Source: Gemmatimonadota bacterium
GTDB taxonomy: Bacteria > Gemmatimonadota > Gemmatimonadetes > Palauibacterales > Palauibacteraceae
Assembly (NCBI GenBank): GCA_048060725.1
Contig: JBGMQU010000003.1
Span: forward strand, 527 to 64,526
Direction of reading: 5' to 3'
DNA: 64,000 bases
Shown here: in pieces, positions 42,346 through 63,855 of the stretch
Layout: each line of letters opens with the position of its first letter
Numbering within the stretch: position 1 is the first letter of the stretch
The notes under the pieces: generated by a model
Database searches by the model: none
The model's input: only the letters and a program-made list of their open reading frames with translations
Told to the model about the DNA's origin: nothing
Made by a program: the position numbers and the translations under genes

Positions 42346-42816
42346 GTGGCTGAAGACGAGGGCATCAAGATCGTCGCGCGCAACAGAAAGGCGCGTCACG
42401 AGTATGAGATCCTCGAGGAGTACGAGGCCGGTCTCGTGCTGAAGGGCGCGGAAGTGAAGTCTCTGCGGAACGGCCAGGCCAGTTTTGCCGATTCGTTCGG
42501 ACGCGTCCAGAACGGTGAGTTCTGGCTGCACAGCCTTCACATTCCGCCGTACGAGAACGCGTCGGTCGATACGCTTGATCCCGTTCGCCCGCGAAAGCTG
42601 CTCTTGCACAGGAGAGAGATAGACCGGCTACGCGCGAAAACGGAGGAGGCCGGCCTGACGCTGGTGCCGCTCGACATCCACTTTCGCGGGGGTCGGGCCA
42701 AGATCCAGATGGGGCTGGCGAGAGGAAAAAAGCGATACGATCGGCGAGAGGACCTGAAGAAGAAGGCGATGAAACGCGATGCGGACAGGGCGGTCACGGA
42801 CGCGCTGCGTCGGTGA
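42346..42816 (+). CDS. smpB: SsrA-binding protein
   Basis: IVARNRKARHEYEILEEYEAGLVLKGAEVKSLR...HIPPYE...RPRKLLLHRREI. Confidence 0.95.
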   Translation: MAEDEGIKIVARNRKARHEYEILEEYEAGLVLKGAEVKSLRNGQASFADSFGRVQNGEFWLHSLHIPPYENASVDTLDPVRPRKLLLHRREIDRLRAKTEEAGLTLVPLDIHFRGGRAKIQMGLARGKKRYDRREDLKKKAMKRDADRAVTDALRR

Positions 42817-60798: not shown

Positions 60799-61224
60799 TC
60801 AGGGCCGAGCCCTGGACAGAGAGTCGTACCACCTTGAGCGGATCTCCTCGATCAGGTCCTCGCGCTCCGTTCGGATTCGTCGCACAACGTCCGGGGGCGC
60901 CGCCGTTTCGGGGTCGTGGATCGCTCCCCACAGGATCATCTCGATCAGGATCGGGAGCGTATCGAGACCCTTCTCGGTCAGGCCGTACTCGTATCGCTTC
61001 CTATCGCCGGGGTCGCGGGTCCTGGTGAGCAACCCCGCGGCCTCCAGTCGTTCGAGCCGGTCGGCCAGGATGTTCGTGGAGATCCCTTCACCAGCGTCGA
61101 GGAACTCGCCGTAGTACCGCCGGCCCCCGAACAGGATGTCCCGGAGCACCAGCAGGCTCCAGCGATCGCCGAACAACTCCAGCGAAACGGAGACGGGACA
61201 CCCCGACCTTCTGCCTTTTCTCAT
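60799..61224 (-). CDS. HxlR family transcriptional regulator
   Basis: CPVSVSLELFGDRWSLLVLRDILFGGRRYYGEF...ISTNILADRLERLEAAGLL. It is divergent from the DinB-family gene. Confidence 0.85.
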   Translation of the reverse strand: MRKGRRSGCPVSVSLELFGDRWSLLVLRDILFGGRRYYGEFLDAGEGISTNILADRLERLEAAGLLTRTRDPGDRKRYEYGLTEKGLDTLPILIEMILWGAIHDPETAAPPDVVRRIRTEREDLIEEIRSRWYDSLSRARP

Positions 61225-61334: not shown

Positions 61335-61844
61335 ATGAACAGCCCGAAGATGGCCTCGATGCTTGCCGAGCTCGAGCAGGAGGAGGCCGCGACGCTCCGC
61401 ATGCTGGAGCGCGTCCCCGCGGACAAGCTGGAGTGGCGCCCCCACCCGAAGTCGATGACGCTCGGGCAGCTCGCTCTCCATACCGCCGGCACGATCGGCG
61501 ACATCAGCAACTTCCTCGAACTCGAGGGGTTCGACGTGAACGACGCGGACTTCGAAGCCGCCCAACCGGCGTCCATCGACGAAATCCTGGAGAAGTTCGA
61601 AACTGCGCAGGCGATGGCGCGCGAACGGTTCGCGGCCTTGAGCGACGACCAGGCGGCGGCGCCCTGGACTCTGTCGAAGGGCGACACCGAGATCTTCACG
61701 ATTCCGAAGGCCTGGCTCGCTCGATCGCTCATGATGAACCACCTGTACCACCATCGCGGTCAGCTGTCCGTATACCTCCGTCTTCTCGATGTGCCCGTGC
61801 CTGTCACGTACGGACGGAGCGCCGACGAAGACGCCTTTGCGTAG
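61335..61844 (+). CDS. DinB family protein
   Basis: The 169-aa protein reads LEQEEAATLRMLERVPADKLEWRPHPKSMTLGQLALH...MNHLYHHRGQLSVYLRLL, which fits the DinB four-helix pattern with His residues. Confidence 0.8.
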   Translation: MNSPKMASMLAELEQEEAATLRMLERVPADKLEWRPHPKSMTLGQLALHTAGTIGDISNFLELEGFDVNDADFEAAQPASIDEILEKFETAQAMARERFAALSDDQAAAPWTLSKGDTEIFTIPKAWLARSLMMNHLYHHRGQLSVYLRLLDVPVPVTYGRSADEDAFA

Positions 61845-61882
61845 CACGATTCGGAGATCAGGCGAGGCACCGGCACGGCGTC

Positions 61883-62407
61883 CTACGAGGTGATCAGGTC
61901 GAGGATGTCATCGATGGCGCCCTCAGCAATCTGTTCCAGTTCGGCAGGGGAGCGGTTCTGGATCGGGTGCGGAACCCAGACGATCCCCGGCTCGAACCCG
62001 AGCGACCGCGACTGCTTGGCCGCCGCGTCCCGGAACTCCGTCGTCACGACGAAGCAGCCCGGTACGCCCCGGTCATCGAGCGCCTTCAGGTCGTGCAGAC
62101 CGCACGACGTGCAGGATCCTCAGTCGGCGAGTGCCTGGACGACGGCGTGCGCCTCCGTCGCGATCCGCTGGAGGATGTCGGGGGAGGCGGTCCGCGCGTT
62201 CGTGGGTTTCCTCGATCGGATCGTGTCGACGCCGCGCGCGGTCAACCGCATCTCGAGATAGTCGAGGAACTCCTCACTGCGCGCCTTCCCGATCCCCTGG
62301 AGGGCGACGACCTTGCCGACAAGGCTGGCCGGCGGGGCCCTTCGGGGCCGGACGACAGGTTCCGTCTCGGCCGTAGGGTCGCACAGCACATTGACCGCGT
62401 CGTTCAT
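61883..62407 (-). CDS. Selenoprotein with U-G-S-C redox motif (UGA-recoded; 174 aa, Sec at residue 96)
   Basis: The track ORF ends at TGA 62120-62122, but the same frame stays open for 78 more G/C3-rich codons to TAG 61883-61885. Hand translation gives MNDAVNVL...EAHAVVQALAD-U-GSCTSCGLHDLKALDDRGVPGCFVVTTEFRDAAAKQSRSLGFEPGIVWVPHPIQNRSPAELEQIAEGAIDDILDLITS. A SECIS-like hairpin lies 11 nt downstream of the UGA. The ATG at 62407 overlaps the stop of the upstream gene (ATGA). I recall a curated family named 'UGSC family (seleno)protein', and this should be verified. Confidence 0.8.
62090..62108 (-). promoter_or_regulatory. Bacterial SECIS element (apical stem-loop)
   Basis: The minus-strand RNA reads UGA-GGAUCCUGCAC-GUCGUGC-GGUCU-GCACGAC, a perfect 7-bp stem with a GGUCU loop. 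Numbering the U of UGA as +1, the loop spans +22 to +26, with G at +23 and U at +24. This is the same geometry and GGUC loop as the E. coli fdhF SECIS, as I recall it. Confidence 0.75.
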
Positions 62408-63855
62408 GTCCGGATCTCCCTCGTTACCGGATGCGAATGCTCGTGAGCCCGCCCGCCCGGCCAGCCGGGCAGGATCGCCGAGAACAGCCCTGCAGGCCCG
62501 CCCGCCCGGGCGATCAGCAGGCCGTCTGGGGGGAACTTCGGGATCATGTCGTCCGCCCGCGAGGCCGGCATGCCCTCCCCGACGCCGCCCGCGCCCTCGA
62601 TGAGATCCCGGCCCGGCCGGGTGGTCGCGTCGGTCAGCGCACGGGTGATCCGGGTCCGATCCCAGCCGGCGTCCCGGAAGATCGCGTAGTGCTCCGGCGA
62701 GAGCAGGAGCAGCGTGAACGCCCATTCGCAGAGCTTCGGGTGGCCGACCGACACGAGGCTCATCGCGAGAGACCGCACCAGTTCTTCGGGGGTGCGGGAC
62801 TGCTGGTCCACGAACCCCTGCACGCCCTCTCCCTGGAACAGCGTGACCGCGTTACGGCCCGGGGCGACGCCGCGCGACGTGGCGAGCGGCTCCCACTCCG
62901 GGTCGGACTCGTCTTCGGCGAAACACTGCGTGAACTTGCTCGCCGAGCCGAACGTCGCCCGGTCGATGCCGCCCGGCCTCCCGCCGCCGACGTTCTGGAC
63001 GATGAGGTTCAGCGCGCGACCGATTGTGGCGTTCGCCCGATTCCCCTGGCCGAGGACGTTGATTCCGGAGTTCATGCCGAGTCGACGGGCCATGGGGCCG
63101 TTCACGATGATGACCGGGGTGCTGAAGCAGGTGCTGCACAGAATCGCGTGGAGCGTGAAGCCCGGTTCCAGCGCCGCCTCCACGATTCCCAGGAGGAGCG
63201 GCATGTACTCCGGCCTGCAGCCGGCCATCACCGCGTTGATCGCCACCTTTTCGACGGTGCACTCCACGAGATCGGGCGGGATCTTCCCCACCATCTCCTC
63301 TGCCGGACGGGGCGTGCCCCCGAGCATCCGCACGATTCGCTCCGGCGTGGGGGGGACCACCGGGAGCCCATCCGTCCACCCCCGGTCGAAACAGGTTTCC
63401 ATCGGGTCGGTGAACTCCGGGACGTGAATGAGGCGGGAGCTGAGGCCGGTGTCCCCGTAGCGGACCAGAAGGGTCTCCGGAACTCCCGGCTCCACGGATT
63501 TTGAACCGCACCCAGGCCGATGCTTCGGGAGTCCCTCGCCGAGACCGTCGATCTCCGTCAGCCGCTCCCAATCGGCGCGGTTCCACCCGACGACCCGATC
63601 GATTTCGTCTCCGTCCACGAACCGAATCAGCGTCGGGACGGTCTCGATTCGCAGGCGAAAGGAGTGCTCGAGCGATCGGTCATCGATTACCCCGTCGACG
63701 TCCGGGGGGAATCCCGGATCGTCCTGGCTGTACACGACGATCTCGGCGTCGGCGGTGCTCAGCCGGTGAAGGACCGGCCCGACGAGCCGGCAGGCGGGGC
63801 AGTCCTCCTTCACCACCGCGACGAGCCCGGTTCGCAGAGGGTCGGAACCCCTCAC
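62404..63855 (-). CDS. Thioredoxin-fold (CPAC) domain fused to a ~380-aa domain of unknown function
   Basis: The GTG at 63855 lies 5 nt after the upstream stop; the track start at 63972 would overlap the upstream gene. The N-terminus LVAVVKEDCPACRLVGPVLHRL...VPTLIRFVDGDE is thioredoxin-like with a CxxC motif. The large C-terminal domain is Cys-containing and I cannot name it (CFDRGWTDGLPVVPPT..., AILCSTCFSTPVIIVNGP...). Confidence 0.7.
   Translation of the reverse strand: MRGSDPLRTGLVAVVKEDCPACRLVGPVLHRLSTADAEIVVYSQDDPGFPPDVDGVIDDRSLEHSFRLRIETVPTLIRFVDGDEIDRVVGWNRADWERLTEIDGLGEGLPKHRPGCGSKSVEPGVPETLLVRYGDTGLSSRLIHVPEFTDPMETCFDRGWTDGLPVVPPTPERIVRMLGGTPRPAEEMVGKIPPDLVECTVEKVAINAVMAGCRPEYMPLLLGIVEAALEPGFTLHAILCSTCFSTPVIIVNGPMARRLGMNSGINVLGQGNRANATIGRALNLIVQNVGGGRPGGIDRATFGSASKFTQCFAEDESDPEWEPLATSRGVAPGRNAVTLFQGEGVQGFVDQQSRTPEELVRSLAMSLVSVGHPKLCEWAFTLLLLSPEHYAIFRDAGWDRTRITRALTDATTRPGRDLIEGAGGVGEGMPASRADDMIPKFPPDGLLIARAGGPAGLFSAILPGWPGGRAHEHSHPVTREIRT

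Follow-up and report, generated by a model that had tools for sequence, protein, structure and literature searches.

The 'UGSC-containing' selenoprotein family was described by Zhang and Gladyshev in 2008, with 255 selenocysteine (Sec) forms against 21 cysteine (Cys) forms in the GOS data (PMC2398784). A 2026 review still counts UGSC as a known selenoprotein whose function is unknown (PMC13188914). So far as it is summarised in that review, the bacterial SECIS (bSECIS) model of Zhang and Gladyshev (2005) comprises an apical loop of 3-9 nt, an upper stem of 4-16 bp, a G within the first two loop nucleotides as part of the pattern N1-G-[G/U]-N-N2, N1 and N2 pairing, 16-37 nt between the UGA and the apical loop, and a minimum free energy (MFE) of -7.5 kcal/mol or lower (PMC13188914). 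For Escherichia coli fdhF the minimal element is a 17-nt stem-loop, nucleotides 15-31, lying 11 nt from the UGA, in which U17, G23 and U24 are critical (PMC8659212); the bulged U17 is reported to be essential for E. coli SelB.

A gene related to these systems is found on the minus strand of the window, i.e. the whole 64-kb stretch of DNA that was analysed, together with the codon on which its reading depends.

62407-61883, minus strand: UGSC-family selenoprotein gene, 174 codons plus stop, predicted Sec at codon 96 (by read-through translation)
62122-62120, minus strand: in-frame UGA, predicted Sec codon, the U of the U-G-S-C motif (by Cys/TGA alignment)

Translated through the UGA, the gene contains the motif ...ALAD-U-GSCTSC.... 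The product scores 107.2 bits against Pfam PF24696 'UGSC' (gathering cut-off 25; profile positions 2-171 of 172 covered) and, with U replaced by C for the search, 111.8 bits against NCBIfam NF041046 'UGSC family (seleno)protein' (E 2.7e-32; positions 2-146 of 147 covered). The latter score lies below the equivalog cut-off of 125 bits, and the family match is still unambiguous. The gene and the described family are alike in the U-G-S-C motif, in size (about 175 aa) and in the existence of both Sec and Cys forms, and Sec forms predominate here too (79 of the 80 best genome matches). No family-level difference is seen; the present copy comes from a Gemmatimonadota-like genome. Judged by profile and motif, the gene belongs to the already known UGSC selenoprotein family.

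In the alignment, the TGA occupies the place that the Cys of ...SDCGSCTSC... has in 80 Cys-codon loci, and 80 other loci have TGA there too. It could be a true stop, in a split or decaying gene or between two ORFs, the downstream part being untranslated. Gene callers do end these proteins at 95-106 aa, with many entries called 'hypothetical protein', and TGA is the commonest stop codon in the window, serving as the ordinary stop in 25 of the 43 predicted genes, including the adjacent partner gene. However, the frame remains open for 78 codons past the TGA in 81/81 TGA loci from several phyla, and full-length Cys homologues are contiguous proteins that align across the TGA. GC3 is 0.92 before the TGA and 0.88 after it. 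Moreover, G+57, G+66, T+81 and F+90 are invariant past the TGA and their third positions vary (0.7-1.6 bits), so the region downstream is translated. A true stop at this position is thus extremely improbable. Since TGA is an ordinary stop for 25 of the 43 genes, the genetic code is standard and not reassigned. The preferred reading of 62122-62120 is a Sec codon.

Homologues in the databases are of two kinds. Some are full-length, about 175 aa long, and contain ...SDCGSCTSCSTHDL...; the others are fragments of 95-106 aa whose last residues are exactly ...ALAD or ...ALSD. The fragment entries ending at the TGA are a systematic mis-annotation of the selenoprotein. They (P0057-P0095) are mostly from Gemmatimonadota and often labelled 'hypothetical protein'. 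Recognising the SECIS restores a 174-aa selenoprotein where annotation ends at 95-106 aa in this lineage.

Around the UGA the minus strand reads ...GCC GAC UGA GGA UCC UGC ACG UCG UGC GGU CUG CAC GAC CUG AAG.... With the U of the UGA (62122) numbered +1, the following parts can be distinguished.

62108-62090, minus strand: predicted SECIS upper stem-loop, +15 to +33 (by fold and orthologue conservation)
62108-62102, minus strand: 5' arm GUCGUGC, +15 to +21
62101-62097, minus strand: loop GGUCU, +22 to +26
62096-62090, minus strand: 3' arm GCACGAC, +27 to +33
62100 and 62099, minus strand: loop G23 and U24, presumed SelB contact (by invariance and fdhF numbering)
62115-62083, minus strand: lower interrupted stem, CCU/AGG plus CA/UG flanking the upper hairpin (by 40-nt fold)

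The initial annotation had claimed a perfect 7-bp stem, GUCGUGC-GGUCU-GCACGAC, 11 nt past the UGA, loop G and U at +23 and +24, and superposition on the coding sequence for T-S-C-G-L-H-D. All of this is borne out at 62108-62090: the gap to the stem is exactly 11 nt and that to the loop 18 nt (+4 to +21), G and U fall at 62100 and 62099, and the stem-loop encodes that peptide in the read-through translation. The fold asked for there also holds, as both the MFE and the centroid structures (RNAfold) contain the hairpin. Alone (19 nt) it has -10.5 kcal/mol and z = -3.0, 2 of 200 shuffles folding equally well; in a 40-nt context the values are -15.7 kcal/mol and z = -1.96, and in a 66-nt context z = -0.43, no better than shuffles. 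Pairing of G22 with U26 shrinks the apical loop from 5 nt to 3 nt. The lower stem is lineage-specific, RNAalifold across orthologues retaining the upper helix only.

In relation to the bSECIS model, the hairpin agrees on all four counts: a 7-bp stem bearing a 5-nt loop, the loop sequence G-G-U-C-U, an interval of 18 nt, and -10.5 kcal/mol. Two further features expected of a bSECIS are present as well, a UGA at a Cys-equivalent position and a structure kept in UGA orthologues and relaxed in Cys ones. There is no substantive difference from the consensus; the stem is unusually regular and uninterrupted, and is largely templated by S-C...H-D.

The E. coli comparator was a 46-nt fdhF SECIS, which has a 100% match annotated as fdhF in 5419 of 5426 complete genomes of the species. 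Loop and spacing match those of fdhF, as the initial annotation had it, and the resemblance as a whole is partial. Nucleotides 22-30 (GGUCUGCAC) are identical in the same numbering, and the stem start 11 nt past the UGA, the G23/U24 numbering and the layout of a lower interrupted stem with an upper hairpin are shared. The bulged U17 of fdhF, however, is absent: C17 here pairs with G31, and does so in 61/61 distinct sequences. The stem here is perfect and extends one pair further at its 5' side, and the host proteins are unrelated, a small UGSC protein as against formate dehydrogenase H. Lacking a bulged U17, the UGSC hairpin may not be accepted by E. coli SelB. It conforms to the general bSECIS type, not to the strict fdhF type.

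How far the single sequence argues for function depends on chance and on the encoded peptide. At 66% GC the window has 1383 TGA triplets and 124 hairpins with a perfect 7-bp stem, roughly one for every 1000 positions, and a perfect 7-bp hairpin at +13 to +18 after a TGA occurs at four other places.

21833, plus strand: TGA followed by a 7-bp hairpin
32257, plus strand: TGA followed by a 7-bp hairpin
47335/47330, minus strand: TGA followed by a 7-bp hairpin
42539, minus strand: TGA followed by a 7-bp hairpin

These four are probably chance or terminator-like structures of a GC-rich genome. The one at 42539 reads CCAGAAC-UCACC-GUUCUGG at +15 and has a loop without G-U. About 0.05 hairpins of the exact specification (7 bp, a 5-nt loop, GU as the second and third loop nucleotides) would be expected to follow a TGA in the window. 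A scan for further genes with an in-frame TGA gave 24 candidates in the window, among which 62122 alone stands out; the remainder were rejected, most of them being artefacts, antisense or in the same frame, that a genome of 66% GC produces.

Of the seven stem pairs, four (16-32, 17-31, 19-29 and 20-28) are dictated by the peptide, since in each a first or second codon position of the conserved Ser-Cys pairs with one of His-Asp. The loop and the three pairs that join wobble positions, 15-33, 18-30 and 21-27, are free to vary. The statement in the initial annotation that stem, loop and spacing together are unlikely by chance was therefore overstated, four pairs being peptide-forced and the significance of the single sequence marginal. 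From the window alone the hairpin is only moderately significant at most, and marginally so at the lower end. Because the 66-nt context does not separate it from shuffles (z -0.43) and similar hairpins follow TGA at four other places, the single-sequence argument is set aside and the comparative data carry the case.

Orthologues comprise 80 loci from genomes (79 TGA, 1 Cys) and 80 loci obtained from metagenomes with a Cys-form profile (79 Cys, 1 TGA). Adding the window brings the totals to 81 TGA genes, 77 of them distinct as 72-mers, and 80 Cys genes, of which 63 are distinct. The interval from the UGA to the loop is without indel in all 81 TGA loci. Among 61 distinct TGA sequences spanning +1 to +48, G23 and U24 are invariant and R22/U26 pair as AU in 37 and GU in 24. 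In the RNAalifold consensus, nucleotides 16-22 pair with 26-32 to form a helix of 7 bp, capped by a G-U-Y triloop. Pair 15-33 is an A.C mismatch in 21 of 77 TGA sequences and is not conserved, so the conserved element starts at +16.

A hairpin at this site might be a mere by-product of the conserved peptide T-S-C-x-x-H-D, with Sec inserted by way of something else or a different element. Ser UCN and Cys UGY codons are intrinsically complementary to His CAY and Asp GAY, and pairs 16-32, 17-31, 19-29 and 20-28 are formed in 100% of Cys-codon homologues as well. The 6-bp core (16-32 to 21-27) is retained by 17 of the 63 Cys forms (27%), about the level given by amino-acid-forced pairs plus chance, and in the Cys form L081 (865-890, plus strand) a 6-bp hairpin folds at the same place. 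That these Cys forms still make the hairpin is due to the intrinsic complementarity of Ser-Cys and His-Asp codons, and the S-C...H-D peptide may have made the site prone to acquire or keep a SECIS.

Against a by-product stand the positions that the peptide leaves free. Pair 18-30 is formed in 100% of the 77 distinct TGA forms (GC 61, GU 10, AU 6, never A-C) as against 51% of the 63 Cys forms, and pair 21-27 in 100% (C-G) as against 54%, i.e. about 52% in Cys forms for the wobble pairs. Pair R22-U26 is present in 100% of the TGA forms (AU 48, GU 29) and in 0/63 Cys forms. U24 and G27 are invariant in Sec forms and variable in Cys forms. The 6-bp core is intact in 77/77 TGA forms and 17/63 Cys forms (Fisher 4.5e-23), with mean hairpin energies of -9.8 and -4.1 kcal/mol, respectively. 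Neither of the two outcomes named beforehand as contrary to a SECIS was encountered: TGA orthologues devoid of the stem-loop do not occur, all 77 keeping the core and R22-U26, nor do the Cys orthologues as a class carry the identical hairpin, with the core in 17 of 63 and R22-U26 in none. The compensatory substitutions that had been looked for in TGA orthologues are present at pair 18-30, where the changes are 5 compensatory, 9 one-sided and 0 broken; compensatory change is confined to this one pair. When the 3' partner is slid by 1-3 columns as a register-shift control, pairing falls from 97% to 8-49%.

The loop itself differs in codons and in residues. Cys forms have Ser TCN/AGC/AGT followed by Thr ACN, and Sec forms have AGU/GGU followed by YUG, giving S-T and [G/S]-L, respectively, at the protein level. 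As [G/S]-L in place of S-T supplies U26 and G27, and thereby the loop and closing pair, an RNA requirement appears to be written into the peptide. Together with the entropy dip described below, which is seen in Sec forms only, these comparisons leave the by-product reading largely refuted and its probability very small.

Codon choice in Sec forms is restricted throughout the hairpin. Ser+16 is TCG or TCA only, Cys+19 is TGC only, and Leu+25 is limited to CUG and UUG. At codon +22 only AGU and GGU occur, AGC and GGC being absent even from GC-rich genomes; Cys forms use TCG, AGC, TCC, TCA and AGT at this codon. Outside the hairpin, Sec forms use all codons available (four at Gly+4, four at Ser+7 and both at Asp+46). 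Third-position entropy in Sec forms is 0-0.4 bits at +18, +21, +24, +27 and +33. The flanks in Sec forms have 1.2-1.8 bits and the corresponding sites of Cys forms 0.7-1.7 bits, and the dip over the hairpin is confined to TGA genes. This pattern indicates that the stem 16-22/26-32 presenting G23-U24 is kept by selection on synonymous sites plus two residues, and only in UGA genes.

Comparison with SECIS covariance models, proposed earlier as a check, was negative: at E<=10, Rfam models gave no SECIS or other plausible family across 61500-62800, the region around the hairpin, and at gathering score there was no match in the whole window. Two Rfam matches (a microRNA precursor and PhotoRC-I; E 2.5-3.1) were dismissed as chance-level and off the hairpin. 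The lack of a matching Rfam SECIS model would suit a different RNA role for the hairpin, such as translational pausing, mRNA stability or attenuation, in place of SelB binding. Such a role is nevertheless very improbable, given that the constraint is limited to UGA genes and that the distance from the UGA is fixed and the G-U loop invariant, as in the bSECIS model. In addition, there is no U-tract after the stem and no terminator-like site in the gene.

A neighbour-joining (NJ) tree with the SECIS-affected residues masked, combined with parsimony, places Sec and Cys forms in two clades separated by one transition. Multiple independent Sec/Cys switches, which could have served as replicated evidence, are thereby ruled out, and with one transition the contrast between classes is a single, unreplicated evolutionary comparison. 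The Sec clade has diverged to 43-60% amino-acid identity, with synonymous sites saturated outside the hairpin, and its control is the similarly deep Cys clade. The weight of the evidence, comparative in kind, is site-specific synonymous constraint inside the Sec clade.

A further helix, UGAGG (+1 to +5) with CCUCA (+33 to +37), would enclose the UGA. It is paired at 88.5% in Sec forms, without compensatory change, is partly to mostly amino-acid-forced, and is dropped by RNAalifold. In the window (62122-62086, minus strand) its G2/G36 position is mismatched.

Taken on orthologue conservation and on analogy with characterised elements, the hairpin +15 to +33 is very probably a bacterial SECIS directing Sec at the UGA 62122-62120. 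The initial annotation as a SECIS is thus supported by the core in 77/77 TGA against 17/63 Cys forms, by the wobble pairs and by agreement with the bSECIS model. In the proposed mechanism, the coding-region stem-loop would recruit SelB carrying Sec-tRNA(Sec) to the ribosome as the UGA is decoded. The C-terminal winged-helix domains of SelB would bind the G-U loop, by analogy with work on E. coli and Moorella SelB. With SelB-GTP-Sec-tRNA(Sec) tethered in this way, the UGA, which precedes the helix by 11-12 nt, could be read as Sec on entering the A site, which would yield a 174-residue UGSC selenoprotein in place of a 95-residue fragment. The 64-kb window contains no tRNA at all, and hence no tRNA-Sec, and no SelA, SelB or SelD domains are present among its 30 larger ORFs.

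The hairpin is a canonical SECIS in an already described family, a textbook example and not a discovery, and would not surprise a specialist; understanding of Sec decoding is unchanged by it. It does make a clean teaching example of RNA constraining protein, as the loop and closing pair need [G/S]-L and three synonymous sites are frozen. The consensus [G/A]UC[G/A]UGC-[G/A]GU[C/U]U-GCA[C/U]GA[C/U], with G23/U24 fixed, could be a precise annotation rule.

An AlphaFold model of a Cys-form UGSC protein (P0004, alignment A2; pLDDT 88.6, pTM 0.84) suggests a flavodoxin-like alpha/beta/alpha sandwich. Against the PDB the model has generic flavodoxin/TIR-like neighbours only (TM 0.4-0.5), and searches by sequence found no solved-structure relatives. 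A thioredoxin-like fold was proposed for the family by Zhang and Gladyshev in 2008 (PMC2398784); the predicted model differs in appearing flavodoxin-like instead. The UxxCxxC motif of GrdB (PMC13188914) is common to the GrdB/GrdF/PrdB reductase selenoproteins and UGSC, where it reads U-G-S-C-T-S-C. One weak local NCBIfam match to GrdF covers the Sec region (E 0.0066), and even at a threshold as loose as E<=5 the Pfam family of GrdB/PrdB is matched by 0/23 UGSC members. Homology with GrdB/PrdB, for which the motif and the one weak GrdF match are the only indications, is unsupported, and the likeness is a motif resemblance alone.

Directly upstream of the UGSC gene lies the partner gene, identified by synteny.

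62404-63855, minus strand: partner gene, N-terminal thioredoxin domain (CPAC) followed by about 370 aa of unmatched fold

Its start is uncertain, the longest ORF (522 codons) reaching 63972 and conservation beginning at about residue 47. The UGSC ATG (62407-62405) overlaps the TGA stop of the partner by 4 nt (ATGA), and the same overlap is found in two other genomes. In 153 of the 160 loci (L001-L160), with Sec and Cys forms alike, the partner immediately precedes UGSC, at 56-72% identity. Its family comprises at least 8000 database clusters, named only 'thioredoxin family protein', and is spread through Gemmatimonadota, Proteobacteria and other phyla. No Pfam family was matched by the partner gene. 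Structure matches identify the N-terminal ~130 residues as a thioredoxin fold, and the remaining 350-370 residues are poorly modelled, with no PDB match. UGSC and its translationally coupled partner might, tentatively, form a widespread two-protein redox system not yet characterised or described as a unit, although this is at present rather doubtful.

Downstream of UGSC the window carries a DinB gene (61335-61844, plus strand) and an HxlR gene (60799-61224, minus strand). In a 4.1-Mb Gemmatimonadota genome (L161 10667-11971, plus strand), the gene directly downstream of UGSC is a class-V aminotransferase (Aminotran_5), a family that includes NifS-type cysteine desulfurases.
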